From: a virus
Length of the DNA: 51,470 nt
Reading direction: 5' to 3' (one strand)
Virus record (IMG/VR): IMGVR_UViG_3300026522_000007
Location: 1-51,470 of that record
Shown: piece after piece, positions 20,288 through 44,201 of the stretch
Numbering within the stretch: the stretch's first letter is position 1
Layout: each line of letters begins with the position of its first letter
The notes under the pieces: model-generated
What the model was told of the DNA's origin: nothing
Seen by the model: only the letters and a program-made list of their open reading frames with translations
Database searches by the model: none
Program-made: the position numbers and the translations under genes

Positions 20288-21190
20288 TTACTTACCTTTA
20301 CCCTTCTTCAATTTATTTTCAGATTCAAGATATTTTTTAGCAAGAACCACTATAGCGTCTTCTTTGTCTGATTTCTTTACCTCACCTTTGGCAATTAATC
20401 TTTCAACCGCTTTATCGAGGATTCGTCCATCTTTAGCTTTAATATCTGACCTACCAATGATAGTACTAATAGGTACATACTCTTTATCTTTAGCATCATC
20501 AATCCAGACTTCTTTTAATTCTGACATGTGATTCTTCACTATCTCAAGCATTGCCATAAAACCAACCGCTGTATTTCTAATTCGTGATGCTTTGCTTACA
20601 TCACTTATTGTATCAAGATACTTGTCATATTCAGCCATTCGTAACATAAGCGTTTCGTTTGACCTTACTTCTTTCATAACATCTTTTAATACAGCTTTAA
20701 TCTCTTCAATCTCAGAAGGAAGAAACAAGATATTCAATACTTGATATTGCAATCCTGAATAAGACATACTTTGAGTGCTTATATTATCTAACAACTTAAG
20801 TGTCTCATCATCTAATCCAGAATACGCTTTCATATTCACATCATCAATACTCTCATATAACTGCTTTAATACAGCCATGTCGTCTTTACCACTGATAGCA
20901 TTATGACTTAATTGAATACCAATACGCTGGTCTTTTGTCAATGGTTCCTCTGTTACTTGAACATCTATCTCTTGTAGCCCTGCTTCAATAGCCGCCTGAA
21001 CTCTATGGTTTCCACTTAACACTACTAAATTCCAATCATCATCATAAACACAAAACGGAAGCTGAGTCAAACAACCATCACGTTTTATATTTTGAACCAA
21101 TCTCTGAAATTCATCAGCATTCATAAACCTTGCATTTACCTCGAGCAACTTTATTTCTCTCGGGTCTACTTTGATGACTTTCGTCTCCAT
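20288..21190 (-). CDS. ParB-like nuclease domain protein
   Basis: 300 aa; ParB N-terminal motif VVLSGNHRVQAAIEAGL; AAGGAGGG RBS. Confidence 0.8.
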   Translation of the reverse strand: METKVIKVDPREIKLLEVNARFMNADEFQRLVQNIKRDGCLTQLPFCVYDDDWNLVVLSGNHRVQAAIEAGLQEIDVQVTEEPLTKDQRIGIQLSHNAISGKDDMAVLKQLYESIDDVNMKAYSGLDDETLKLLDNISTQSMSYSGLQYQVLNILFLPSEIEEIKAVLKDVMKEVRSNETLMLRMAEYDKYLDTISDVSKASRIRNTAVGFMAMLEIVKNHMSELKEVWIDDAKDKEYVPISTIIGRSDIKAKDGRILDKAVERLIAKGEVKKSDKEDAIVVLAKKYLESENKLKKGKGK

Positions 21191-22521
21191 AGTTCGTATC
21201 CCTCCTTAAGACTCCACTGTCCCATTGGCGCTCCATAAGACAGATTCCATTTTTTCACTTTACCATTTTCGTCTTTTTCAATTTCTCTTCTTCCAAATAA
21301 TTCAAATAAACCACGATATTTCATGCTTACAGGATTCTTACTAAATGCATTTGTTGTAATGCTGTTTGCTCTCTTACCTGTTACTTTCTCAGCCAAAAAT
21401 CTTGCTTCTTTACTTAAGATACAATATAGAACAAGCTTACTCAAATTCTTTTCACACGTAGGTCTAATCGAAAAATCAGTCATCAAATATACAGTGGGCT
21501 TCTCAAGCTTTTCACTTCCTTTAAGCATGTAACTACTACCAAAAGCAAATACACCAAATAACTTATCTTCACAAAATAAACCATAACTTGCTATAGGCGT
21601 TCCTACTTTCGTAACATTCGTACTCAAGTATAATGACCTTAATTCTTGAAATTGGTCAATAGTGATAGGTGCAATTGCAATATTTTCTGTAATTACATCA
21701 TGCTTACCAATTCTAATGATGGGCTTAGCATCCGTTGCCCTTACTCCTTGCCTTACATAATGCTTTTTATCTGTCTTACTATAAAAGTAAATCAGTTTAT
21801 TCGGTCCTGTATTTAACGTGCCATTGAAGTATTGTTCAAGCTCTTCAACTGGTCTTTCTGTTCCAATGACAAAATTATCCAACCTGCTTACTTTATGACA
21901 AAACTCAGCAATATGCACATCAGGGTCAAACATCTCATAATCAGGTTCTGTATACTCAAAGAAATTTTCAATCTCCTTCCACATTCTTTCATAGCCACCT
22001 TTGAAAAATGGAGGGAAACTGATAAACCCACAATCTGCAGGTATTTCATCAATCATTTTCATTACATCGCCATGATAAAATGTATCAATGTTTGTCTTCA
22101 TTCCTTCAAGTTTTTTACACAAATCACTATGCATTCTTGAATACTGTTCTTTATATCCTCGCATCATACGTTTACTATACTGGTCATTATGCATTGAATA
22201 TGGCAGAATATCAGACGCTAACATCATTGTTGCTACTTTCTCTGTATCGTTATTCATATAATCTCTCAGAAAGTTACACTCACCATCGTAATCGTCTTTA
22301 ATTTTCAGTTCTTCCAAGCTCTGACCTGAGAAATACTTACCAATGTACGAGCTATAAATAGTCACGTCATTACTCGTAATCTTACAGTCAAGGAATCCAC
22401 TAATAGAACGCTCAATCGTGAAATTGCCTGAGCAACCAACATATACCCTTTTTACATTCCATTCTTTAACGATATTCCCGATGATATTTATCGCTCTATG
22501 CGGTAATGTACCCTGAAACAC
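21166..22521 (-). CDS. Dam (D12-class)-like methyltransferase-fold protein with a non-canonical FPPF motif and an unassigned C-terminal domain
   Basis: GTG at 22521 lies 7 nt after AAGGAGG; RVYVGCSGNF aligns with motif I and DCGFISFPPFF with DFVYVDPPY of T4 Dam (from memory); about 190 extra C-terminal aa. Confidence 0.5.
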   Translation of the reverse strand: MFQGTLPHRAINIIGNIVKEWNVKRVYVGCSGNFTIERSISGFLDCKITSNDVTIYSSYIGKYFSGQSLEELKIKDDYDGECNFLRDYMNNDTEKVATMMLASDILPYSMHNDQYSKRMMRGYKEQYSRMHSDLCKKLEGMKTNIDTFYHGDVMKMIDEIPADCGFISFPPFFKGGYERMWKEIENFFEYTEPDYEMFDPDVHIAEFCHKVSRLDNFVIGTERPVEELEQYFNGTLNTGPNKLIYFYSKTDKKHYVRQGVRATDAKPIIRIGKHDVITENIAIAPITIDQFQELRSLYLSTNVTKVGTPIASYGLFCEDKLFGVFAFGSSYMLKGSEKLEKPTVYLMTDFSIRPTCEKNLSKLVLYCILSKEARFLAEKVTGKRANSITTNAFSKNPVSMKYRGLFELFGRREIEKDENGKVKKWNLSYGAPMGQWSLKEGYELWRRKSSK

Positions 22522-23095
22522 TAGCTTTCCTCCTTTCCTCAATTTTATCTATGGCTTTCTTCCAAGATTCTTCTCCATTAAACTCTTTGAAGTCATCATA
22601 ATCCAAATTATCAGATACGATTTTAATAGAATAAAGACTTCTATACACAAATCTTGCAATATATGCAAGCTCCATATCAAACAAAGCTTTTTCTTCAACG
22701 TTGTCTGCTTTCTCAACAAAATCAATGCTTGTATAGCAATTATATCCTTCGTCAGATAGCTTCACATGATTTTTAACGCTTGTATTTGCTTTTGTCGGAA
22801 ATTCAAAACAACTACACGCTTTTACATTTACAACACAACCAACATCGATTCCTTTTGCACCTGCGTATCCAACATTGATAATGTTAACATCCGAATTCAA
22901 GATTCCTAAACTTATGGCTTTTGATAACGAGCTTATTACATTATTTACACCAGCACCTGTGACTATCAGCTGAAAAACATCATTTGACCACAAATTCATG
23001 CAACTTAGCTCTTGCTTTTTCATTTTATAGTGCTCAATCAAAGATTGGGCTTCTTGCATTTCTGCCACCACAAACAATGCTTCCATCATTTTCAT
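22496..23095 (-). CDS. PNP_UDP_1-family nucleosidase (MTA/SAH nucleosidase-like)
   Basis: LIVTGAGVNNV, VNIINVGYAGA, VGCVVNV and LFDMELAYIA...IKIVSDNLD align with E. coli Pfs/MtnN blocks from memory. Confidence 0.65.
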   Translation of the reverse strand: MKMMEALFVVAEMQEAQSLIEHYKMKKQELSCMNLWSNDVFQLIVTGAGVNNVISSLSKAISLGILNSDVNIINVGYAGAKGIDVGCVVNVKACSCFEFPTKANTSVKNHVKLSDEGYNCYTSIDFVEKADNVEEKALFDMELAYIARFVYRSLYSIKIVSDNLDYDDFKEFNGEESWKKAIDKIEERRKASVSGYITA

Positions 23096-23856: not shown

Positions 23857-24417
23857 TCATGCATCCTTTACTGATTCATTGTTGTGCTCCTTATAGTAGC
23901 CACAGCTCTTAAACTCTGGACACTCATGACGATATTCACACATAGGAATAAGGAAGCCCTTAAATTCAGGATTGACCTTTTCAACCTCCTTACAGATTTG
24001 TGTCATGATGTATCTGGTAGTTGCATCAGCCATACCACACAGTCTGCGATGTGACATGAACATGAGCTGTTCTGCGTTTACATCAATGATGTGACTTACC
24101 ATTGCATTCTGCGGTGCCAATTCTCTGTCATACATAGTTTGCCTGTCGTTCCTTTGAGACTGAACATAATGCTCAATACCAATCTTATGACGTACCAGAT
24201 GCACTGATGCAAAATACGGAATAGTCAACCTGATTGTGAACATCAACGTTCTGATAGGTGAATGCTGAGCTTTAAGAATCTGTCTCTTCCACTCATCGGT
24301 CACCTCTTTACCGGCATACTTCTTACCCATGGTATTCAGTGCCAGTTCTTTACACCTTGCCCAGTCTGCTTTGGTTGGATTCCTAAGAATTTCAACCTGA
24401 ATATTTTCGTTTGCCAC
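23857..24417 (-). CDS. ThyX-like (flavin-dependent thymidylate synthase fold) protein, short form
   Basis: 186 aa; GTG start 9 nt after GGAG; HSPIRTLMFTIRL...LVRHKIGIEHYVQSQR (RHK-x8-SxR in place of RHR-x7/8-SxRY); Cys-rich C-terminus. Confidence 0.6.
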   Translation of the reverse strand: MANENIQVEILRNPTKADWARCKELALNTMGKKYAGKEVTDEWKRQILKAQHSPIRTLMFTIRLTIPYFASVHLVRHKIGIEHYVQSQRNDRQTMYDRELAPQNAMVSHIIDVNAEQLMFMSHRRLCGMADATTRYIMTQICKEVEKVNPEFKGFLIPMCEYRHECPEFKSCGYYKEHNNESVKDA

Positions 24418-29541: not shown

Positions 29542-29880
29542 TTACATACCCTTTAACACATCGCCAAGCATAAAGTCATATTCAGACTTGGTTTGTATCT
29601 CTTCCTTAAGATATAGCTGAAAGTATTTGAGACCAGTTGCTGCAATCAGCTCAAGCGGCAGGTTTGACTTAGGCATGATATACCCGAATGTGTATACCTG
29701 ACTATCAGCATCTCGTGTTCTGTCTAACACAATACGCATTTGCCATTCATTTTCTTCCTGACCTCTTGTAAAGTTTGCCCTGAACTTTGGTTTCCTTTTA
29801 TCGTCTTTCAGAATGTAGCTAAACTCTGAGCAAATCTTACCACTGTAAACTCGATTATCTAAATCCTTTAGTGTTAGCAT
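29542..29880 (-). CDS. Hypothetical protein
   Basis: 112 aa; AGGAGGG 6 nt before ATG. Confidence 0.5.
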   Translation of the reverse strand: MLTLKDLDNRVYSGKICSEFSYILKDDKRKPKFRANFTRGQEENEWQMRIVLDRTRDADSQVYTFGYIMPKSNLPLELIAATGLKYFQLYLKEEIQTKSEYDFMLGDVLKGM

Positions 29881-30241
29881 TTAGTGCCCTCCTTCTTTGT
29901 TCCATTGTGGTCGAATCCTTCCATTGCTTGTACACATGAGATGCGATGTTTGTCAGATACTCACGATCGTATTTAGTTAGCTTTGACGGAATGTCAAAAC
30001 CTGTACTACCATCAAAATCATACATTGCATAGTAGTATGTTGAACGCCTGAACTCTGCAGGATCACATGCTCTTTGCAACTCAACCAATTGATGGGATAT
30101 GCTGTCGTAATATTGGTCAGACACACAGCTCTCATTTTGTTCGTAATACATAATGCTGTATACGATTATGCGCCTTTGCAAATAACTAATCTTAGTTACG
30201 TCGCTCCAATATAAACATGGCATCTTACTGAAGTCTATCAT
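29855..30241 (-). CDS. Hypothetical protein (faint resemblance to NAD-ligase Ia-type helix pair)
   Basis: 128 aa; GGAGG RBS; YSIMYYEQNESCVSDQYYDSISHQLVELQ recalls YY..P.ISD.EYD.L..L; not reliable. Confidence 0.3.
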   Translation of the reverse strand: MIDFSKMPCLYWSDVTKISYLQRRIIVYSIMYYEQNESCVSDQYYDSISHQLVELQRACDPAEFRRSTYYYAMYDFDGSTGFDIPSKLTKYDREYLTNIASHVYKQWKDSTTMEQRRRALNANTKGFR

Positions 30242-30984: not shown

Positions 30985-32088
30985 TTAAGCAGCCATCTGG
31001 ATTTTTTTGAGTGCATTGTGGTATTTGGTGCTTCCGCTTGGATTGAAAGTATTGATTGTGTCCTTGTCCAATCCCTTAACAATGCTAATCTTCATTGCCA
31101 TTTCTAAGTTCATGCCCTTAGCTTCAAGCTTGGTAATCATTGTCATACATCTGTAAGAGAATGTGGCTCTGATTCCTTTGCTCTCAGCTTCCTTACGCAT
31201 CTGATGGATGAACTCAACCAGCTCTGTATTGTTATGAGTGATTGCCATTTCAATTTTCAAACAGTAATCAAACTCAATGATTGCGAATCTATCAAGTGTT
31301 GCCTGGTCCAGAACCATACGGCCTGTGTACATGTCATCTGCACCGTTTCCTACGGTATTACCAGCAGCTACGAAGTGCACATGGTTAAAATCAACTCGAC
31401 CGTTAGGGAACTCAAAGTAACCATTAGCAATTGCTGCATTAAGAAGAACCAGAACCTCAGGGATTGAAGCATCCATTTCATCCAGGAAGAAGATGCATTC
31501 ATTTTCATCTGTGCAAGCCTTGTAGAACTCTGTTTCGTGGAACTTTCCACCTGCATCAATGAATCCTGTGAGTTTGTATTCCTGCTGAACTGAATTACTG
31601 AAGTAGAAGTTCCAACCAAGTTCCTTTGCAATCTGCTCAACTGTGTGATTCTTACCAGAACCAGCAGGACCAGCAAGGTAAACCGGAATGTTGCATTCCA
31701 AACAGCACTTGATTTCATCGTATCTGTCATGATGAACTTCACCTTTGACCTCAGGAATCTGAGCTTTGACCTCAGGAATCTGAGCTTTAGGAATCTCAAT
31801 GCCTTTGTTCTCGATTTCGTTCTTAATTTTGGTTGATGTGGTACCTACCTGCTTGACAGTGGACAGTTTCTTAATGCCTTTGGTTTCGTATTCACGCTCA
31901 ACCTTTTCTACCTGATAGTTTGCATTGAAGTAAATTCTGCAACCATCAATTACTGTCGTGTTTTTGTATGCTTTACGCACATAAGTGTACTCTTTGCTTG
32001 AACCTTCAAACTTAAGTGTAACAACTACACAACCATGCTTCATTGCCTTTTCAATCTTGATAACTTCGAAATTTACTTTTGTCATCAT
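30985..32088 (-). CDS. AAA+ ATPase (AAA_5 / MoxR-CobS-like)
   Basis: 367 aa; Walker A LAGPAGSGKNHT; Walker B FFLDEMDA; AAGNTVGNGADDMYTGR...LDRF. Confidence 0.75.
   Translation of the reverse strand: MMTKVNFEVIKIEKAMKHGCVVVTLKFEGSSKEYTYVRKAYKNTTVIDGCRIYFNANYQVEKVEREYETKGIKKLSTVKQVGTTSTKIKNEIENKGIEIPKAQIPEVKAQIPEVKGEVHHDRYDEIKCCLECNIPVYLAGPAGSGKNHTVEQIAKELGWNFYFSNSVQQEYKLTGFIDAGGKFHETEFYKACTDENECIFFLDEMDASIPEVLVLLNAAIANGYFEFPNGRVDFNHVHFVAAGNTVGNGADDMYTGRMVLDQATLDRFAIIEFDYCLKIEMAITHNNTELVEFIHQMRKEAESKGIRATFSYRCMTMITKLEAKGMNLEMAMKISIVKGLDKDTINTFNPSGSTKYHNALKKIQMAA
31743..31797 (-). repeat. 21-bp tandem repeat (about 2.6 copies) inside the AAA+ gene
   Basis: ctttgacctcaggaatctgag occurs twice plus a partial copy; encodes IPKAQIPEVKAQIPEVKGE. 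Confidence 0.9.
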
Positions 32089-32950: not shown

Positions 32951-33763
32951 TTAGATATTCTCAAGGTCGTCGATTGTTTTGATTGTGTTTACGTCCTTCT
33001 TAATGAAGTTAGGCAGCAGATACTCACCTTTGAAAATGTTACGCATCTCACTTGATGTAGCAGGAGTTCCATAACCACGCACAAAACTCTTCGTTACATG
33101 TGGATAAACCTCAATGAATCTGAAGAACAAACGACGAAGCATTGACGGATGAACCAATGGGAATGCCAGTTTTGAAACATTCAGCTTTTCGTTTGCCGAT
33201 TTGATTCTCACTTTCACAACGAACTGTTTTGAAGGATGACCAGCAGTTGTACCAAGCACGATGTTCAGATTGCATCTGTAACCTTGAGCCTCAAGCTTCT
33301 TGACAATCTGCATTGCCTTAATGCTCTCTTCGATTATCTGGTCTGCACTTACACCACCATTGTAGTCGATTGATTTATTCAGGGTAATGACTTTCTGCTT
33401 TACAGGTATCATTTTCTTTGTGACCATGTTATTTGGTACACCTTGCAGATACAAGGGAACGATTGCTTGATAACCTGCAACACCAAGAACGTTTTTAGGC
33501 TTCATCATCGGCTCTGTTTTGCTCTCAATTACCTTGAGCTTCTGAACTAACTTGGTTGCCATATCTGACCAGCCATTCTTAAACAACTCAACTGCTTCAC
33601 TAAAATCTCTCGTTTTTGTGAAGTAGTAGTTACCATCAACACTAGAATGCTTAGCCCAACAGAATGCATCGTTAAATGGTGTGTGAATCAGATACTCGTA
33701 AAATTCATGTAAGCTATCATACTCAACAACTTCAGTTTTGTCTGTGATTTGATTTGCTCTCAT
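32951..33763 (-). CDS. Hypothetical protein (possible partner of the AAA_5 ATPase)
   Basis: 270 aa; GAGGAGG RBS; first gene behind P6; no motif recognised. Confidence 0.5.
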   Translation of the reverse strand: MRANQITDKTEVVEYDSLHEFYEYLIHTPFNDAFCWAKHSSVDGNYYFTKTRDFSEAVELFKNGWSDMATKLVQKLKVIESKTEPMMKPKNVLGVAGYQAIVPLYLQGVPNNMVTKKMIPVKQKVITLNKSIDYNGGVSADQIIEESIKAMQIVKKLEAQGYRCNLNIVLGTTAGHPSKQFVVKVRIKSANEKLNVSKLAFPLVHPSMLRRLFFRFIEVYPHVTKSFVRGYGTPATSSEMRNIFKGEYLLPNFIKKDVNTIKTIDDLENI

Positions 33764-35774: not shown

Positions 35775-36236
35775 TTACAAACATACATCTCCACTCCTAT
35801 TTACTACACGAACAATACCTGCATTCTTAAGCATTCGTGAGCAAATACCACAAGGAACTGGATTCTTATCCTCATGGAAGTCAATAATTTCTTCGTCCCA
35901 TAAATCGGACTTTGCTTTATCCAATCCGTATTCTTCACATGCCAAATAAACCGTAGCACCAATCAATCGTTCTCGACTTGTAGCAATCAGTGCATTCTGT
36001 TCTGCATGAACACTATCACAACTTTCGTATCCTGAATACCTCTCAGCATTTGCTCTTTTGCATGTGCCTCTGTCACAACAGTTTTCTTCGCCTCTTGGAC
36101 TACCATTGTAACCAGTAGCAATGATAATGTCATCCTTAACAATAACACAACCATAATGGCGTTTGAGACATGTGCTTCGTTTGGAAACTGCAAGGGCTAT
36201 GCCAAGATAATACTCGTCCTTTGTTATTCTTGCCAT
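35775..36236 (-). CDS. dCMP deaminase (ComEB/cytidylate deaminase family)
   Basis: 153 aa; VHAEQNAL and PCGICSRML zinc-binding motifs. Confidence 0.85.
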   Translation of the reverse strand: MARITKDEYYLGIALAVSKRSTCLKRHYGCVIVKDDIIIATGYNGSPRGEENCCDRGTCKRANAERYSGYESCDSVHAEQNALIATSRERLIGATVYLACEEYGLDKAKSDLWDEEIIDFHEDKNPVPCGICSRMLKNAGIVRVVNRSGDVCL

Positions 36237-37971: not shown

Positions 37972-40671
37972 TTATCGTTGATTTGATTTTGCATACAACG
38001 TACTGTTGTATTTAGTCACACGATTGATGTAAATCCGCTTGTTGAACTCCAAAGCTCCTTGCTCTTTCAGAATCTGAATAACTCTTGATGTGACAGTCCT
38101 TGATTTACATCTATCGTAGAAGTCATCAAAGCTTGTAAACACACCATGAGCTTTTCGTTCCTCTTCAATTGCTGTGGCTGCCTTTTCACCAATTCCTTTG
38201 ATTGAGCTTAATCCTTCCTGAATTACCACCTCACCTTCAACCTTTCGAAGTGTGTAATCAGCTGAGTAATTGACATGTGGCAAGAACAGCACTGCATTAT
38301 CACGAACAGCATTCTCTTTGAACTTAGCTATCTTAGCTTCATCACCACTGTACTTCATCTTCACATACCAGAACTCTGTAGGGTAGTAGATTTTGTAGTA
38401 CATTTCCTCGACTGAGATTAAGCTATATCCTGTAGCATGTCCTTTGTTGAATGCGTAGTTGAAAAACTTATCGAAGATTTCAAATGCCTGTTCCTTGGTC
38501 ATACCGTGCTTCTTTGCACCAGCCTCAAACTTCTTTACAAAGTTGTCGTAGTTCTCTTCAAAGTTTCTGATTGCCTTTTCAGTACCACCACGTTGCATCT
38601 TTATAATCTTATCGGCTTCAGGCCATTCCAATCCACCAATGTTAACTGCAATAGCTTGTACCTGTTCCTGATATATCACACAACCATAAGTTTTCTCAAG
38701 ATATTTTGAGTATGGCAAACTCGTATCGATATGAGCTTGGTCAACCTTATTGGCTGCATATACCTCAGGCATCTTTAAGCTTAGCGGCCCAGGTCTGTTC
38801 ATAGCTGATGCAGCAATCACATCTTCAAAGCAATCACATTGCATTACTCTCAGCATTTCCTGAACTGATTTCTTTTCAAACTGGAATACACCATCACAAT
38901 TGCCTTCACCAAAAGCTTTCATGATTTGTGGGTCATTTACCCAGTTCTCATCGAACTCATCATGACCAGTAAGCTGTCTAAGCTCACCAATACTTGACAT
39001 TGTAGTCAGACCAAGAATGTCAAACTTAATAACTTTAATCTTTTCCATATCATTCAAGTCATAATTCGTAAAATGCTTACCCGTCTTTGAATCGATACGA
39101 ACAGCTGTATAGTCCAGAATGTTTCCACCAGTAATAGCAACACCAGCAGCGTGTGTACCAATAAAACGTATCTTATTGTACAACTTACAGAAGTGCTTGA
39201 TGATGTTATCGTATTGCGCGTTCCACATTTTAGCCTCTGCAGAATTAGCGATAGCTTCAAGGTCAAGTAAACCTTCAGTGATGTATCCATTGATGAAAGT
39301 TTTGATTTGCTTAATCTCTTCTTTATTTCCCTCTAAACCACAAACCTTTGCAAGGTCATTTATGAGATTGTCAACACGATACAAACCATAAGAACAAATC
39401 TGAGCTGCATTATTTGGATACCTGTCAAGCAAATGCTGAATTACTTCTGCTCGACGTGATGTCTCAAAGTCAAGGTCAATATCAGGCATCTTCTTTTTAT
39501 CAATTCGTAAGAATCGGCTAAAGTCAAGGTCAAACAAAATTGGGTCAACGTCTGTAATGTGCAATGCGTAGTTAACCAAGCAGTTGCAACCAGAACCACG
39601 ACCAGGACCAACTTGAATTCCTTGCTCTTTTGCCCATGTTGCATACTCTGCAACCATTAAGAAGTAATCTTCAAAACCATGATACTTGATAACCTCAAGC
39701 TCTTCCTTAATTCGTGCTGCATACTTCTTATTCCACTTACCTCGTTTCTTAAGACCATCTCTAATCTTTTCTTTCAGTAAGTCGAATGAATCTCTTTCAG
39801 GGTCAAACTTAGGAAGCTTAAGCTCAAGCTCATCAAGAATATCACCATCAACTTTGTCCTCGATTTCCTGTAGGTTCCTAACCATTTCTTTTGCCAGGGC
39901 TTTTGCTTTGGCATCACCAAAGTCACTTCTGTGCATTTTATAGAATCGCCGCATGATTTCCTTTTCAGTTGGCATGTAACGTTCTTTGTAGGTTGCCTCA
40001 ATGTCGTCGAAATTATGTTTAGCAACCTCATGCATTTTGAGGTATGTATCAAAATCCTCTTTTCTGCCTCTATGACTATCTGATGTAAGGATACACTTTA
40101 TACCCAATCTATCTGCCAGACCAATCATAGTTACATTTATTCTTTCCTGTGCTTCTGCTTCAGAAACTTTATAGGGCTGAATCTCGGCATATAAATCGTC
40201 ACCAAAGATACTCTGTAACTTTTCCAAATATTTTCTTGCCTGTTTTACATTTCCCTTTAGAATACACTGGCTTGAATAGCTTGCAATGCATGCTGTTGTG
40301 CAAATCAGTCCTTCGTGGTACTTTTCAAGCAGTTCAAACGTCCAGATAGGATTGTAGTACTTGATTTTCTCACCTTCATACTGAAGTGTATTCAGATTTG
40401 TGTACCCTTGCTTTGTCTTAGCAAACAAGCATAAGTGGTAACCTCGTGTCTGAGGTTTATACTTCGGTAAGAAATATCCTTCGCATCCCATGATAGGCTT
40501 GATGCATTCCTCTTTACATGCATAAAAATGTCTCACCAGGCTATTTGTATTACCGTGATTTGAAATGCCCAGAGCCGTATAACCAAGCTTTTTAGCAAGA
40601 GCCGCCAATTCCTCAGGTTTACCAAAACCATCAAATGTTGAACACTCATCGTGTCTGTGCAAGTCTACCAT
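37972..40671 (-). CDS. dnaE: DNA polymerase III alpha subunit (DnaE-type, with PHP domain)
   Basis: 899 aa from ATG at 40671 (AAGGAG 8 nt upstream); PHP motif VDLHRHDECSTFDG...GISNHGN; polymerase core blocks (PDIDLDF, GTHAAGV, KFDILGL); C-terminal HhH-like GIGEKAA. Confidence 0.9.
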   Translation of the reverse strand: MVDLHRHDECSTFDGFGKPEELAALAKKLGYTALGISNHGNTNSLVRHFYACKEECIKPIMGCEGYFLPKYKPQTRGYHLCLFAKTKQGYTNLNTLQYEGEKIKYYNPIWTFELLEKYHEGLICTTACIASYSSQCILKGNVKQARKYLEKLQSIFGDDLYAEIQPYKVSEAEAQERINVTMIGLADRLGIKCILTSDSHRGRKEDFDTYLKMHEVAKHNFDDIEATYKERYMPTEKEIMRRFYKMHRSDFGDAKAKALAKEMVRNLQEIEDKVDGDILDELELKLPKFDPERDSFDLLKEKIRDGLKKRGKWNKKYAARIKEELEVIKYHGFEDYFLMVAEYATWAKEQGIQVGPGRGSGCNCLVNYALHITDVDPILFDLDFSRFLRIDKKKMPDIDLDFETSRRAEVIQHLLDRYPNNAAQICSYGLYRVDNLINDLAKVCGLEGNKEEIKQIKTFINGYITEGLLDLEAIANSAEAKMWNAQYDNIIKHFCKLYNKIRFIGTHAAGVAITGGNILDYTAVRIDSKTGKHFTNYDLNDMEKIKVIKFDILGLTTMSSIGELRQLTGHDEFDENWVNDPQIMKAFGEGNCDGVFQFEKKSVQEMLRVMQCDCFEDVIAASAMNRPGPLSLKMPEVYAANKVDQAHIDTSLPYSKYLEKTYGCVIYQEQVQAIAVNIGGLEWPEADKIIKMQRGGTEKAIRNFEENYDNFVKKFEAGAKKHGMTKEQAFEIFDKFFNYAFNKGHATGYSLISVEEMYYKIYYPTEFWYVKMKYSGDEAKIAKFKENAVRDNAVLFLPHVNYSADYTLRKVEGEVVIQEGLSSIKGIGEKAATAIEEERKAHGVFTSFDDFYDRCKSRTVTSRVIQILKEQGALEFNKRIYINRVTKYNSTLYAKSNQR

Positions 40672-41389
40672 TTGCAATTCTCCTTTTCTTACATATCATC
40701 AATATCTGACGATTGGCTTGAGTAGGGGACAAACAAGCAATTGTTGCTCTTACATAACTTTCAGGAAATGCACCTCTGAGTTTTGAAGCAATCATACTCA
40801 AATTAACATCAGTTTCTAAAAGCTTATTATATTCTCGTTCTTCAAGGCTCCAACCAATCTCCTTATTGATTTTGAATTCCTTGTTTATTATACCATAAAT
40901 CTCAGAATTTGTAAACTCTTCTTTATGGTCAGTTGGCCACACTCTATCTTCATACATTCCTTCGTATGGAGGAGTAGGAGTCGTGAACAACAACATCCCT
41001 TCTGGCACCAACCAGCTTGCAATTCGTTCAAACATTGTCGATGCAAATTCTTTGTCGAGGTGCTCAATAACTTCCATGAACACAACAGCATTAAACGGAC
41101 CAAGCGTATTACACAATAAGTGACATCTTATAGACGTAATATCAATGACGGTAATCTTTTCATCAGATTCGTATCGAGTATCTCCGTCCATCTTATAAAA
41201 ACAAATGTCTTCTCTTTTGAAATTCTTCTTTACTACGTTTTCTAAATCACTCGAGCCTGCACCAAGCTCTAACACCCTTGAATCTACAGGCAGCTGGGCG
41301 ATTTGCCCAGCCACCATAAGAATCCTATTGAAGTTTGAGAAGCTCCAGTGCAAGTTGTAATCGCATTCAGAGAATTTGTCGAATCCCAT
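40646..41389 (-). CDS. Class I SAM-dependent methyltransferase (small-molecule type)
   Basis: About 247 aa; motif I VLELGAGSSD; post-I and II blocks VVFMEVIEHL and LVPEGMLLFTTP. Confidence 0.65.
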   Translation of the reverse strand: MGFDKFSECDYNLHWSFSNFNRILMVAGQIAQLPVDSRVLELGAGSSDLENVVKKNFKREDICFYKMDGDTRYESDEKITVIDITSIRCHLLCNTLGPFNAVVFMEVIEHLDKEFASTMFERIASWLVPEGMLLFTTPTPPYEGMYEDRVWPTDHKEEFTNSEIYGIINKEFKINKEIGWSLEEREYNKLLETDVNLSMIASKLRGAFPESYVRATIACLSPTQANRQILMICKKRRIANGRLAQTR

Positions 41390-41405
41390 TTCTCTATTTG
41401 CATTC

Positions 41406-41849
41406 TTACAATTCACCTTGCTGTACCTCCTTAAGCTTTTCAACAATCAGCTCAACACACTCATCAATGCTTTTGTTTGTAGTATCAAGCTCAAGTGTTT
41501 TCTCTGACTTGTAATACCTACGAACATTGTTACGATAAAGTTTCTGAGCTTTACCGTAATCATACGGGCATTCCTCATTATGCTCATTAAGACGTTTAAT
41601 TGCAACATCTTCAGAAGCAAAGCAATAAACAACCATGAAGTCCTTATTCTTCTTCTTCATAATCTTTCGTGCCTGATGGATAAACTCCTGATTACCAAGT
41701 TTTGTTTCACGACCAAGAATCTTATCAAAAGTCATGTAACCAACAGGACCTCTGTCAATCACAACATGCTTGAAGTTTGTTGCTTTCAGAAACTCCCATT
41801 CCAAAGTCGTTTTGCCGGCCTTATCAAGCCCTTCGAAAATCACCCACAT
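41406..41849 (-). CDS. dNMP (thymidylate-type) kinase, short
   Basis: 147 aa; P-loop FEGLDKAGKTT as in dTMP kinases; IDRGP in the place of the DRY block. Confidence 0.6.
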   Translation of the reverse strand: MWVIFEGLDKAGKTTLEWEFLKATNFKHVVIDRGPVGYMTFDKILGRETKLGNQEFIHQARKIMKKKNKDFMVVYCFASEDVAIKRLNEHNEECPYDYGKAQKLYRNNVRRYYKSEKTLELDTTNKSIDECVELIVEKLKEVQQGEL

Positions 41850-41855
41850 ATATTA

Positions 41856-42767
41856 TTAGTCCTCCCAGCTCTCAATCATTTCAGTTTCGCCAGGAAGCAG
41901 AAGTTCCGGTTCCTCTTTGTAGATTCGCTTAAGCTCTGCATACCAGGCAGATTTACTGTAATCAAACTTACAATTTTCAGTTGCATGAGTTACATGTTCA
42001 TTGCCATCACAGAATCTCTTGAAAGAGTTTCCAAACACATCATCACATGTAAAACACTTCTTAGCTGCAGCACCAAAACAATCACATCTCTCAAGATTCT
42101 TGGTATAAACCAGCTTATCAAGCTCGTCCATTTCATCATCAAGAGCAATTGCCTTTTTGAGCTCCTTAAGCAGAAGTCTGAATGCATAGTTGATTTCATC
42201 AGCTGTATTGTTTTCCAGCCTCTGACCACATACATTCACAAGCTGAGGAAGAGTGAAAGAACAAGAGGCGTCGCACGTCTGACCATGCATCAACAGGTAA
42301 CGTGCATCCTGATAGGGGATGACTGTATGGTCCTTGCCATCATCATTTCCTTTTGTCATATCATCATACAACTTCTGAGATTCCTCAATAAGCTTTACAG
42401 CTCTTTCATAAAACTCAGACTGAACAATATTCAAAGGAAGAACGACGTTGTGCTCAACATGCTGAGGCATCTGAGATTCAACCTGGAACAACCAACCACG
42501 ATGACGAGTAAGCTGCGCAAGATTTACTCTCGATATGTTCTTAAACACACACTGAATAAGTACAGTTTCCTGAGGAGTAGGATTCAGTCTCTTGTCAACC
42601 GAGCCGGTAATGAACTCCTTTACGATAGGAAGCTCCGGATTGTACTCAATGTCATGAAGCTGAATCCAGGTCTGCTTAAGCATATCCCACATTATTTTTG
42701 CAGGATGCTTTGTGTAGCCGATAATCTCTACATCAATTCCTTTGTAGCCGTTCTGAACGCCATTCAT
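41856..42767 (-). CDS. ThyX-like protein, long form with a Cys-rich C-terminal extension
   Basis: 303 aa; AGGAGG RBS; TRHRGWLFQVESQMP (RHR-x7-S but SxRY replaced by SQMP); ARYLL...QRLENN...EI aligns with ThyX second-half blocks; C-terminal CDCF..CFTCD..C..C. Confidence 0.6.
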   Translation of the reverse strand: MNGVQNGYKGIDVEIIGYTKHPAKIMWDMLKQTWIQLHDIEYNPELPIVKEFITGSVDKRLNPTPQETVLIQCVFKNISRVNLAQLTRHRGWLFQVESQMPQHVEHNVVLPLNIVQSEFYERAVKLIEESQKLYDDMTKGNDDGKDHTVIPYQDARYLLMHGQTCDASCSFTLPQLVNVCGQRLENNTADEINYAFRLLLKELKKAIALDDEMDELDKLVYTKNLERCDCFGAAAKKCFTCDDVFGNSFKRFCDGNEHVTHATENCKFDYSKSAWYAELKRIYKEEPELLLPGETEMIESWED

Positions 42768-43265
42768 TTATTTGGCCTCCTTCTCAATTAGTTTGTTGAT
42801 TTCATTCGTGTATCTCTCAAGACGTTCTTTAGATTCGAAGTAAATCTCACCAATACAATCGGAAGAATTACCAAGAGTCTTTTCATTCAAACACCACTGA
42901 TATACACTGTAAGCATCTGCCAACTTAAGAATATTATATACTATCGGTTCAGGTTTGTACACCTCTCCGAGATAATTTTTCCAATGTTCTTTGTAATAGT
43001 CCTGCTCGATCCTGTTGAGTATTTGCTGCATCTCAGGATAGTTTGCTTTGACATCATGAGGAATATCAGATGTACGACTTTCACATGTGTCATGCAAAGC
43101 TGCAAGAATCAGAACCTGTCGTTCCTGCTCGTGAGTAAGATTAAGCTGAGCCATAATCTTAAGACAGAACAAAGAAACAAAACATGTATGCTCTGCAACA
43201 CTCTCATCCTGAAGTCTAATACGATGATTGTACCTGATAATCTTCTTGAGTGGGTACTCACTCAT
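42768..43265 (-). CDS. HD-domain phosphohydrolase (YfbR-like 5'-deoxynucleotidase)
   Basis: 165 aa from ATG at 43265; SVAEHT ... LHDTCESRTSDIPHDVK (H..HD..D). Confidence 0.7.
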   Translation of the reverse strand: MSEYPLKKIIRYNHRIRLQDESVAEHTCFVSLFCLKIMAQLNLTHEQERQVLILAALHDTCESRTSDIPHDVKANYPEMQQILNRIEQDYYKEHWKNYLGEVYKPEPIVYNILKLADAYSVYQWCLNEKTLGNSSDCIGEIYFESKERLERYTNEINKLIEKEAK

Positions 43266-43275
43266 TATGGATTCT

Positions 43276-43749
43276 TTACTCAACAATTCCAGCATAAGCA
43301 AGTCCCTCATTCTTCTCAATCAACTCAGGCAACTTATCAAGGTCTTTATAGTTCTGAATAACAATGTCTCCAGACTGAGCAAGCATCAAATTAAACTGAC
43401 CATTAGGACCAAGAGTTTCACAATAATATACAACAATCTTTCTTTTAGAAGGATAAACAGCTGCATTTAATCCATTTACGTATCCTGCTTCCCAGATTGT
43501 TCCCATGTCTTTTCCATCTGTAATTGCAAATAAAATATCACAGCTTGCAATATTTTCAACATTATCACTAAATACTTTGCTGCGCATTGCTTCATCAGCA
43601 ATTGGACTGCATACACAATTATCCTTTGGGCTCCATACATTAAATCCAAGTTCTCTCAGGCGTCCCTTTACACGTTCCTCACGCTCTGCTTGATCAGGAT
43701 TGAACCAAGGGCTTGCAAAGTACACTTTCATATTTTTAATATCGTTCAT
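43276..43749 (-). CDS. Nucleoside 2-deoxyribosyltransferase family protein
   Basis: 157 aa; KVYFASPWF, DMGTIWEAGY and FNLML motifs. Confidence 0.75.
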   Translation of the reverse strand: MNDIKNMKVYFASPWFNPDQAEREERVKGRLRELGFNVWSPKDNCVCSPIADEAMRSKVFSDNVENIASCDILFAITDGKDMGTIWEAGYVNGLNAAVYPSKRKIVVYYCETLGPNGQFNLMLAQSGDIVIQNYKDLDKLPELIEKNEGLAYAGIVE

Positions 43750-43765
43750 GGCGATTTCTCCTTTT

Positions 43766-43800
43766 CTAAAAATGTAGGGAGGGAGTTTAGCCCCTCCCTA
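43766..43800 (-). terminator. Rho-independent terminator inside the nucleotide cluster
   Basis: Minus strand: TAGGGAGGG-GCTAAACT-CCCTCCCTA (9-bp stem) followed by CATTTTTAG. Confidence 0.7.
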
Positions 43801-43817
43801 TTATGTGAATACTTCCC

Positions 43818-44201
43818 TTATAAAGTTTCAAGACGGTCAGACACAACACTAAGCTTTTGCTGAATTGCATTGGCCAAGTCGTCACCATCAAATCCAGAAA
43901 ACATTGCGATGTTCATAAGTACCACGAAACAATCAGCCAACTCCTCAAGCTTTGCATTCTTATCATACTTATCATTGCGATGTGATTTCCACCTTTTATC
44001 AGCGTCCAACACCTCACCAATCTCGGACATAAGCTGCTGAACATGATATGATGCTAAACCAACATCATCCACGGGAGCAGTAACCGTATGCTCATCCTTG
44101 TATCTATCATAGACACCTTTATGAATGAGCTTATCTTGAGTTATGAGTTGAGTGTTGAACAACTGCTGCAAAGTTATTGCATTAGTCGTCTTCCCATTCA
44201 T
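43818..44201 (-). CDS. All-alpha NTP pyrophosphohydrolase (dimeric dUTPase / MazG-like)
   Basis: 127 aa from ATG at 44201 (GAGGAGG upstream); LQQLFNTQ...SEIGEVLDA..RWK...EELADCFVVLMNIA. Confidence 0.6.
   Translation of the reverse strand: MNGKTTNAITLQQLFNTQLITQDKLIHKGVYDRYKDEHTVTAPVDDVGLASYHVQQLMSEIGEVLDADKRWKSHRNDKYDKNAKLEELADCFVVLMNIAMFSGFDGDDLANAIQQKLSVVSDRLETL

Follow-up and report, generated by a model that had tools for sequence, protein, structure and literature searches.

A divergent ThyX-fold protein in a mobile nucleotide-metabolism module of gut phages: a possible route to C5-modified deoxyuridine nucleotides

What does a thymidylate synthase homologue do in a phage once much of the active-site signature of its family has been replaced? 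The question is raised by IMG/VR record IMGVR_UViG_3300026522_000007, an uncultivated gut phage of ~51.5 kb, all 51,470 nucleotides of which (positions 1 to 51,470) are referred to here as the window. On the basis of the sequence, a first-pass annotation had described six consecutive genes directly upstream of a DnaE-type polymerase gene and had proposed that they form a non-canonical pyrimidine pathway. These six genes were found on the minus strand, like all genes of the window, at positions 40646 to 44201, and their family assignments held up in comparisons with Pfam, PHROG and TIGRFAM-type profiles; the cluster is a nucleotide-metabolism operon. At its centre stands a protein that we call ThyXL, which belongs to a rare, uncharacterised subfamily of ThyX with a clearly ThyX fold and which, together with three of its neighbours, recurs in otherwise unrelated phages. 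The six genes, in the direction of transcription, are as follows.

43818..44201, minus strand: all-alpha nucleoside triphosphate (NTP) pyrophosphatase, MazG/dimeric-dUTPase-like (dUTPase_2 3.6e-4, MazG 8.4e-4, phrog_173 1.4e-7)
43276..43749, minus strand: nucleoside 2-deoxyribosyltransferase (NDT), module core (PF05014 2.4e-17, 63.6 bits against a cut-off of 28.8)
42768..43319, minus strand: HD phosphohydrolase of the YfbR/DatZ family, module core (YfbR-like PF12917 3.1e-14; phrog_7076 1.5e-18)
41856..42767, minus strand: ThyXL, divergent ThyX-fold protein of 303 amino acids (aa), module core (PF02511 1.1e-16)
41406..41849, minus strand: short Tmk-like P-loop kinase of 147 aa, module core (phrog_761 2.9e-10; Tmk-type Walker A)
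40646..41416, minus strand: class I S-adenosylmethionine (SAM) methyltransferase, small-molecule type, lineage-specific (PF13489 7.3e-7, 29.5 bits against 27)

The ThyX-fold protein and its active site

ThyXL passes the gathering score of the Pfam Thy1 family (PF02511, 61.6 bits against 24.8) and fails at the equivalog level (TIGR02170, 33.5 bits against a cut-off of 87.9). Its relatives are few: when 1.84 billion cluster representatives were searched exhaustively with HMMER, only 74 clusters (at 50% identity) were recovered, about 28 of them full-length, with 280 to 330 aa. No full-length family member was found in 50,697 deposited phage genomes, where the only matches were partial ones, of 28 to 33% identity, to ordinary ThyX, and searching the PDB by sequence gave no match to ThyXL. 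The fold is nonetheless plain. The AlphaFold 2 (AF2) model, with a predicted local distance difference test score (pLDDT) of 93.5, was matched by Foldseek to structures of ThyX and of PolB, a methylase of UMP and deoxyuridine monophosphate (dUMP), with E values of ~1e-8 to 1e-9 and TMt values of 0.6 to 0.74, and alignment of the ThyXL profile with that of canonical ThyX (hhalign) gave a probability of 99.8%. All six genes of the cluster are under purifying selection, and the ratio of nonsynonymous to synonymous substitution rates (dN/dS) of ThyXL, 0.03 to 0.13, is similar to that of DnaE.

To compare active sites, residues were mapped from the numbering of Thermotoga maritima ThyX to that of ThyXL in the window. 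ThyXL resembles the ThyX family (Thy1, PF02511), including its neofunctionalised paralogue PolB, not only in fold but also in keeping equivalents of Q75 (Q85), R78 (R88), S88 (S98), R147 (R156), R174 (R183) and E182 (E191); the residues that bind or activate dUMP, R88, S98, R156 and R183 in ThyXL, are shared by 90% or more of 28 family members. It differs from canonical ThyX in the loss of R90 (M100), Y91 (P101), H53 (N62), N163 (T172), R165 (P174) and H178 (N187), in a RHR motif whose His and second Arg are unconserved, and in an additional domain of ~95 aa. The ThyX motif RHRxxSxxxxSxRY is broken in the window (RHRGWLFQVESQMP), where the stretch reads LTRHR-GWLFQVE-SQMP, with SQMP in the place of SxRY. 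The first-pass annotation had read these letters in the same way, as RHR-x7-S with SQMP where SxRY would be expected, and RHR...SQMP recurs in 118 of 118 close homologues (those in which the search pattern matched); what did not stand is the notion that RHR is a retained functional motif, for family-wide conservation of the motif is limited to the first Arg and the second Ser: the His (H79) is replaced by Q, G, S, A, D or E, and R80, the second Arg, is often lost.

In ThyX, R174 is reported to activate dUMP, and methylene transfer to be greatly slowed by each of the substitutions S88A, R90A and Y91A, more than 100-fold by the last (PMC8316439). Given the residue pattern described above and these mutant data, ThyXL looks like a protein that would still bind and activate a dUMP-like nucleotide but could not perform the standard ThyX methylene transfer, and the sequence comparisons support the view that it is probably not an ordinary thymidylate synthase.

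The C-terminal domain of ~95 aa is conserved throughout the family and carries the motifs D..KSAW..EL and LL.PGE.EMI..W. It had been described beforehand as a Cys-rich extension, and six Cys were indeed counted in the window; because the number runs from 0 to 6 per protein across the family, no conserved metal site is implied, and we discarded the idea of a metal or Fe-S site in this extension.

A mobile four-gene module and its relatives

Among close relatives of the window phage (ThyXL 66 to 98% identical), the whole order pyrophosphatase (MazG), NDT, HD, ThyXL, kinase, methyltransferase, DnaE is conserved. Contigs of this close group were binned with metagenome-assembled genomes of Oscillospiraceae, Faecousia and other Clostridia, and a megablast search of the cluster against phages gave no match. 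More distant ThyXL members have 27 to 44% identity in tblastn searches. The module is present in eight or more lineages of otherwise unrelated phages (L001, L002, L003/4, L005/6, L010, L033-36, L038 and Geobacillus phage GR1), and the homology of the neighbouring genes to those of the window was confirmed by BLAST and with purpose-built hidden Markov models (HMMs). Beyond the module genes, the only gene shared with the window is that of the dCMP (deoxycytidine monophosphate) deaminase, joined in L005/6 by DnaE. The core is a horizontally mobile four-gene module consisting of NDT, a YfbR/DatZ-type HD protein, ThyXL and a truncated Tmk-like kinase, arranged as follows in the lineages other than the close group.

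L001: NDT, HD, ThyXL, kinase
L002: NDT, HD, a 287-aa gene, ThyXL, kinase
L003/L004: two pairs, ThyXL-HD and NDT-kinase
L005/L006: NDT, two small open reading frames (ORFs), then ThyXL and kinase; an NT5C-like 5'-nucleotidase domain (weak match) beside NDT; no HD gene seen
L010: NDT, ThyXL, HD-dUTPase fusion, kinase
L033-36: NDT, HD, ThyXL, kinase
L011: ThyXL without partner genes
GR1: NDT, thioredoxin, HD, glycosyltransferase, hypothetical gene, short kinase, RNase HI, nitroreductase, 322-aa ThyX, PHP/DnaE polymerase, dUTPase

The position of the HD gene beside ThyXL or NDT is conserved across lineages, and the nucleotidase function is replaced (L005, by the weakly matching NT5C-like domain) or fused (L010) rather than lost. 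The fusion, at L010 1942-2880, is a single protein of 312 aa that combines a YfbR-like HD domain with a trimeric dUTPase domain and directly follows ThyXL. NDT homologues adjoin ThyXL or HD in L001, L002, L003, L005, L010, L031, L033, L038 and GR1, and the family HMM placed the short kinase beside the module in nine lineages or phage groups, including L001, L002, L003, L005, L010, L031, L033 and GR1. Most of the lineages seen have a gene for a dUTPase or a dUTPase_2/MazG protein close to the module, and often one for a dCMP deaminase (L001, L002 and L005); flavin reductase genes were found nearby in GR1 (nitroreductase), L002 (FMN_red) and perhaps L005. The replicative polymerase alongside the module varies, being DnaE, PolA, a weak PolB-like match or a Prim-Pol gene. 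Since it differs between lineages, we rejected the earlier suggestion of a dedicated polymerase: the module travels with several polymerase types and is not tied to DnaE.

As for the partner enzymes in the window, the pyrophosphatase scores slightly under the Pfam cut-offs for both dUTPase_2 and MazG, its orthologue in L038 attains the dUTPase_2 cut-off, and its dN/dS ranges from 0.05 to 0.21; its longest ORF reaches 44255. NDT matches the PDB entry 6evs, an NDT (9.8e-11), and keeps the YxASPxF and D..GT.WE.G motifs in the alignment, so that by sequence it looks like a true NDT with intact catalytic motifs. An N-glycosidase of deoxynucleoside monophosphates (dNMPs) of the DNPH1/Rcl/MilB type was considered and dropped, as the PDB matches were all true NDTs, with none to DNPH1/Rcl or MilB entries. 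The HD protein, which probably begins at the ATG at 43310, matches YfbR (2.1e-4) and DatZ (3.7e-3) in the PDB, and its best PHROG (phrog_7076) is the DatZ-type "dATP triphosphohydrolase." A typical Tmk has ~210 aa, against the 147 aa of the short kinase, which matches full-length Tmk over the P-loop portion only (PF02223, 20.5 bits against 27) and scores 21.8 against 83.25 for TIGR00041, below the level of Tmk membership in both cases. We also tried the kinase as a DNA kinase of 5-hydroxymethyldeoxyuridine (5hmdU); tblastn against deposited phages matched only GR1 and one faecal contig and no known hypermodifying phage, and the candidate was rejected.

The lineages L003 and L004 carry, in addition to ThyXL and the short kinase, a fully canonical ThyX of 222 aa (GHMSPLEH, RHR...STRY, R..LP) and a full-length Tmk of 217 aa, and thus have two parallel synthase-kinase pairs.

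A related version of the module is found in a cultured phage, Geobacillus phage GR1 (OK896991.1; loci L007/L039/L040). Like the window, GR1 encodes NDT, HD, short kinase, a non-canonical ThyX, a DnaE-type polymerase and a pyrophosphatase or dUTPase, with identities to the window proteins of 30% (kinase), 34% (HD) and 33% over the core (ThyX). Its ThyX reads RHR-x7-CTGD and scores equally against canonical and ThyXL profiles, and the GR1 annotation lists no other thymidylate synthase. GR1 differs from the window in adding an alpha-glucosyltransferase homologue, a nitroreductase, a thioredoxin and, elsewhere, an amidoligase and a gamma-glutamylcyclotransferase (GGCT), and in having no module methyltransferase. 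The glycosyltransferase gene lies between those of HD and the kinase, and its product matches phrog_2888, alpha-glucosyltransferase, at 6e-53, is 35 and 32% identical to gp313 and gp306 of Bacillus phage G, respectively, and distantly matches a T-even "alpha glucosyl transferase" (8e-6). In all, GR1 encodes two NDTs, and it also has a thymidine kinase. The gene set suggests that its DNA may be hypermodified; the published description of GR1 does not mention DNA modification and gives no data on virion bases.

In Bacillus phage G itself (220956-238140, L013), the paralogous alpha-glucosyltransferases gp313 and gp306 are clustered with a ThyA homologue, gp319 (DVPCTNLL motif), as well as with a dCMP deaminase, a 331-aa Tmk, a glucose-1-phosphate thymidylyltransferase and a HAD phosphatase, in what looks like a glycosylated-pyrimidine pathway. 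In Streptococcus phage vB_SagM-GXN1 (PQ819873.1; L041 7465-9814), NDT and HD genes are followed by one for a 432-aa protein annotated "thymidylate synthetase," which is only marginally ThyX-like (hhalign 45%); the arrangement may be a form of the module that has diverged even further.

Variable neighbours and other features of the window

The gene between the kinase and DnaE is not part of the module. The start of the methyltransferase was set at the GTG at 41416 by homologues of 255 to 256 aa (a longer ORF extends to 41446), and the protein has the glycine-rich motif I (LELGAGSS). All of the homologues listed (at least 120) are at least 71% identical and come from the close phage group; the gene is absent from L001 to L011 and L033 and is replaced in L038. 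The first-pass annotation had included it in the proposed pathway; its confinement to one phage group does not bear out a place in the core. Among the 50 best Foldseek matches of its model, which is of moderate quality (pLDDT 72), most were small-molecule methyltransferases; a DNA methyltransferase was rejected as a candidate, since no such family matched and none appeared among those 50.

The methyltransferase slot, between ThyXL and DnaE, is filled in L038, a sister phage, by a gene for a 335-aa protein. Six of the seven members of its family match Exostosin_GT47, the best with an E value of 3e-4, under the cut-off, and on that sequence evidence the protein is a probable glycosyltransferase. 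Sub-threshold matches of the TAGT or hydroxymethylcytosine (HMC)-glucosyltransferase type were also obtained in L001 and L003, so that glycosyltransferase-like genes occur with the module both in GR1, where the match is strong, and in three metagenomic lineages, where the matches are sub-threshold. Single-sequence hhalign comparisons among the candidate glycosyltransferases gave nothing, and PDB sequence searches with the 335-aa protein of L038, with L001_298 and with the GR1 glycosyltransferase gave nothing useful.

Four further features of the window bear on the cluster. The dCMP deaminase and the second Thy1-like gene that had been reported outside the cluster are both present, and DnaE lies directly downstream of it.

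37972..40677, minus strand: DnaE-type replicative polymerase (PF07733 8.7e-65; PHP, finger and HHH_6 domains)
35775..36236, minus strand: dCMP deaminase, putative source of dUMP (PF00383 2.6e-16; phrog_174 5.7e-40)
23857..24417, minus strand: mini-ThyX, a second ThyX-fold gene, 186 aa (PF02511 1.7e-9; hhalign against canonical ThyX 95%)
43775..43800, minus strand: terminator-like hairpin between the pyrophosphatase and NDT genes (10-bp stem with 6 GC pairs, then CATTTTT)

Mini-ThyX lacks the canonical helical insert, keeps equivalents of H53, RH(K), S..R, R147 and R174, and ends in a CX5CX5CG tail; its motif is nearer to the canonical one than that of ThyXL. Homologues, often unannotated, occur in phages of Clostridium, Thomasclavelia and Bacteroides and in the crAss-like phage cr116_1. 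With regard to the strong terminator that had been placed after the first gene of the cluster, the hairpin and its T run are present; some close relatives keep the element, with stem-preserving changes (L014, L020, L029 and L032), others lack it (L016, L017 and L031), and terminator-like sites are in no excess in the cluster region (3 observed against 3.3 expected from shuffled sequences).

Elsewhere in the window, a gene on the minus strand at 21166-22542 encodes a 458-aa protein that joins a domain resembling phage DNA adenine methylases (PF22555, 1.2e-67) to a phage GNAT-like one (PF22559, 8.2e-40), and it adjoins a gene for a protein with a ParB-like nuclease domain (phrog_7405; 20288-21190, minus strand); together they may form a Mom-like system for hypermodifying adenine, separate from the module. 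A stand-alone 128-aa protein (29855-30241, minus strand) corresponds to the DNA-ligase-like N-terminal domain that binds nicotinamide adenine dinucleotide (NAD+; PF22745, 4e-17), and in the replication region a CbbQ/MoxR-type AAA+ ATPase (30985-32088, minus strand; phrog_249, 1.2e-52) is encoded near a DUF7192 protein (32951-33763, minus strand; PF23822, 2.6e-36).

A possible route to C5-modified dUMP and its rivals

Taken with the fold, the residue pattern, the synteny and the co-occurrence of its parts, the module is read here as a ThyX-based route to C5-modified dUMP, analogous to the pathways built on ThyA homologues, with a probability that we put at roughly 0.45. We infer the substrate, the product, any dependence on flavin and the direction of each step as follows. 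The pyrophosphatase, presumably converting dUTP (or dCTP) to the monophosphate, and the dCMP deaminase would channel pyrimidine deoxynucleotides to dUMP. ThyXL would bind dUMP, activate its C5 and release a C5-substituted dUMP, which would be something other than thymidine monophosphate (dTMP) because the protein has lost those residues on which methylene transfer and reduction by way of flavin depend; 5-hydroxymethyl-dUMP (5hmdUMP) would be chemically nearest. Indeed, 5hmdUMP is an acid-trapped intermediate in ThyX catalysis (PMC3498832), and a hydroxymethyl product would therefore be chemically close to the normal reaction. The consistent pairing of ThyXL with a kinase of its own implies that the product is a new dNMP, which the short kinase would phosphorylate, leaving host enzymes and the phage polymerase to finish the route into DNA. 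The HD protein would meanwhile dephosphorylate the competing canonical nucleotide, probably dTMP or thymidine triphosphate (dTTP), to the nucleoside; by either activity of its family, as a dNMP nucleotidase or as a triphosphohydrolase of deoxynucleoside triphosphates, it would yield a deoxynucleoside usable by the adjoining NDT, which would recycle the deoxyribose of the purged nucleoside through base exchange. It is the tight linkage of HD and NDT that suggests this sequence of dephosphorylating an unwanted nucleotide and reusing its sugar. Finally, the variable neighbour might decorate the newly introduced group, as a SAM methyltransferase in the window phage and as glycosyltransferase homologues in others. 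A much more specific version, namely, that ThyXL would be the first ThyX-fold enzyme to make a non-thymine C5-substituted dUMP (most simply 5-hydroxymethyl-dUMP), which the methyltransferase would then methylate to an undescribed thymidine analogue such as 5-methoxymethyldeoxyuridine while sister lineages glycosylate theirs, strikes us as unlikely.

The operon logic is that of the ThyA-homologue pathways, which include T4 (gp42, gp56, gp1, cd and the glucosyltransferases), the SPO1-type 5hmdU pathway and the 5-hydroxy-dCMP (5hodCMP) synthase clusters of RB69 and DLP3: a pyrophosphatase and a dCMP deaminase leading to the monophosphate, an altered synthase homologue, a short Tmk-like kinase and variable glycosyltransferases nearby. 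The clusters for 5-hydroxydeoxycytidine, in particular, consist of a synthase homologue of the ThyA type, a short Tmk-like kinase and glycosyltransferases (PMC13326640). The module differs from these pathways in using the unrelated ThyX fold and in having NDT and HD at its core. The first-pass annotation had instead drawn a parallel with the Z-genome set (PurZ, DatZ and MazZ), which the module resembles in its YfbR/DatZ-family HD protein, its MazG-type enzyme and its proposed purge-and-replace logic. However, the central enzyme is pyrimidine-type, HD matches YfbR at least as well as DatZ, and nothing resembling PurZ turned up in the scan, which covered the replication and metabolism ORFs (those at 1 to 18 kb, probably structural, lie outside it); a Z-genome reading was accordingly set aside, and the parallel is unsupported beyond its general logic. 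Of the broader proposal of a non-canonical pyrimidine pathway, what survives is the altered ThyX, as judged by sequence, and a gene set with the logic of pyrimidine replacement, both strengthened by the recurrence of the core, by the canonical ThyX and Tmk that coexist with it in L003 and by the glycosyltransferase-like neighbours; the polymerase, the methyltransferase, the RHR motif and the Z-genome parallel drop out.

Several points weigh against C5 modification. To our knowledge, ThyX-fold enzymes carry out only the C5 methylation of dUMP or UMP, and structurally atypical ThyX proteins are already on record (3fnn and 3ge9, both Foldseek matches). The methyltransferase is generic, so that a nucleotide or DNA target is a supposition; the window has no glycosyltransferase, and most glycosyltransferase assignments outside GR1 lie under the curated thresholds. 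In L011, ThyXL stands alone, with its partner genes missing. The residue mapping itself uses a T. maritima ThyX sequence that we assume to be correct, its numbering being consistent with the mutant names in PDB titles, and the list of residues contacting flavin adenine dinucleotide (FAD), among them the substituted H53, N163, R165 and H178, is likewise assumed. Furthermore, dCMP deaminase, dUTPase, ThyX, a Tmk-like kinase and NDT also make up an ordinary set for dTTP supply and salvage, and Bacillus and Staphylococcus phages carry a ThyX of ~245 aa and MazG (with a dNMP kinase in Bacillus phage DZ1) near their replicative polymerase genes. That phages of the close group assemble readily from standard metagenomes is neutral with regard to DNA modification.

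The main rival, which we rate as somewhat less likely than C5 modification, is the conventional alternative: ThyXL would be a divergent, genuine flavin-dependent thymidylate synthase, perhaps holding or reducing its flavin in another way, and the kinase a minimal dTMP kinase; dUTPase/MazG and dCMP deaminase would feed dUMP, HD and NDT would salvage deoxynucleosides from degraded host DNA, and the methyltransferase would be unrelated. Besides matching a textbook dTMP pathway and the ThyX-MazG arrangements near the polymerases of those cultured phages, this account is favoured by the retention of the residues that bind and activate dUMP, by the above-threshold Pfam score and by the flavin reductase genes of GR1 and L002, whose location near the module would fit with flavin chemistry. 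It has difficulty, however, with ThyXL itself, in which R90 and Y91 are lost even though their mutation cripples methylene transfer, H53, N163, R165 and H178 are gone, H79 and R80 vary and the TIGR02170 score lies far under the cut-off. Such an enzyme would moreover be redundant with the canonical ThyX and Tmk in L003 and with mini-ThyX in the window, and the recurrence of glycosyltransferase homologues beside the module also counts against this account.

We see little chance that the pathway is directed at cytosine in the manner of T4, with ThyXL acting on dCMP, the MazG-like enzyme serving as a dCTPase like gp56, HD purging dCMP or dCTP and the second ThyX making dTMP, like td. The window and L003 do each have two ThyX-fold genes, as T4 has td and gp42, the pyrophosphatase is of the MazG type and the glycosyltransferase homologues carry annotations of hydroxymethylcytosine enzymes, but the conserved residues include the equivalent of R174, which removes the proton from uracil N3, almost all lineages have a dUTPase linked to the module (in L010 as a fusion with HD), and a dCMP deaminase near the module would drain the supposed substrate. 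At similarly long odds, ThyXL might not modify C5 at all and might be a nucleotide-binding regulator or scaffold, a sink for dUMP or dTMP, or an inhibitor of the host thymidylate synthase. Strong constraint over the whole protein, conservation of the dUMP-activating Arg and of S98, and the consistent pairing with a kinase all argue for catalysis, even if many residues linked to catalysis or flavin are lost while those that bind the nucleotide are kept, L011 has ThyXL without partners and the window ORFs that were scanned against Pfam yielded no flavin reductase.

If the reading as a C5-modification pathway is true, the module would represent a second, independent evolutionary route to hypermodified pyrimidines beside the ThyA homologues with which, as far as we know, all characterised phage pathways to C5-modified pyrimidines begin; it would be a convergent second origin and would add a new reaction to the ThyX fold. 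Because GR1 is in culture, the idea of a ThyX-based modification is directly testable. The pairing of HD and NDT suggests, in addition, that deoxyribose may be recycled from an unwanted nucleotide, a use of this pair of which we know no description. A widespread group of phages of gut Clostridia would then carry modified DNA, which would bear on how they evade restriction and CRISPR, on bias in virome sequencing and on phage engineering.

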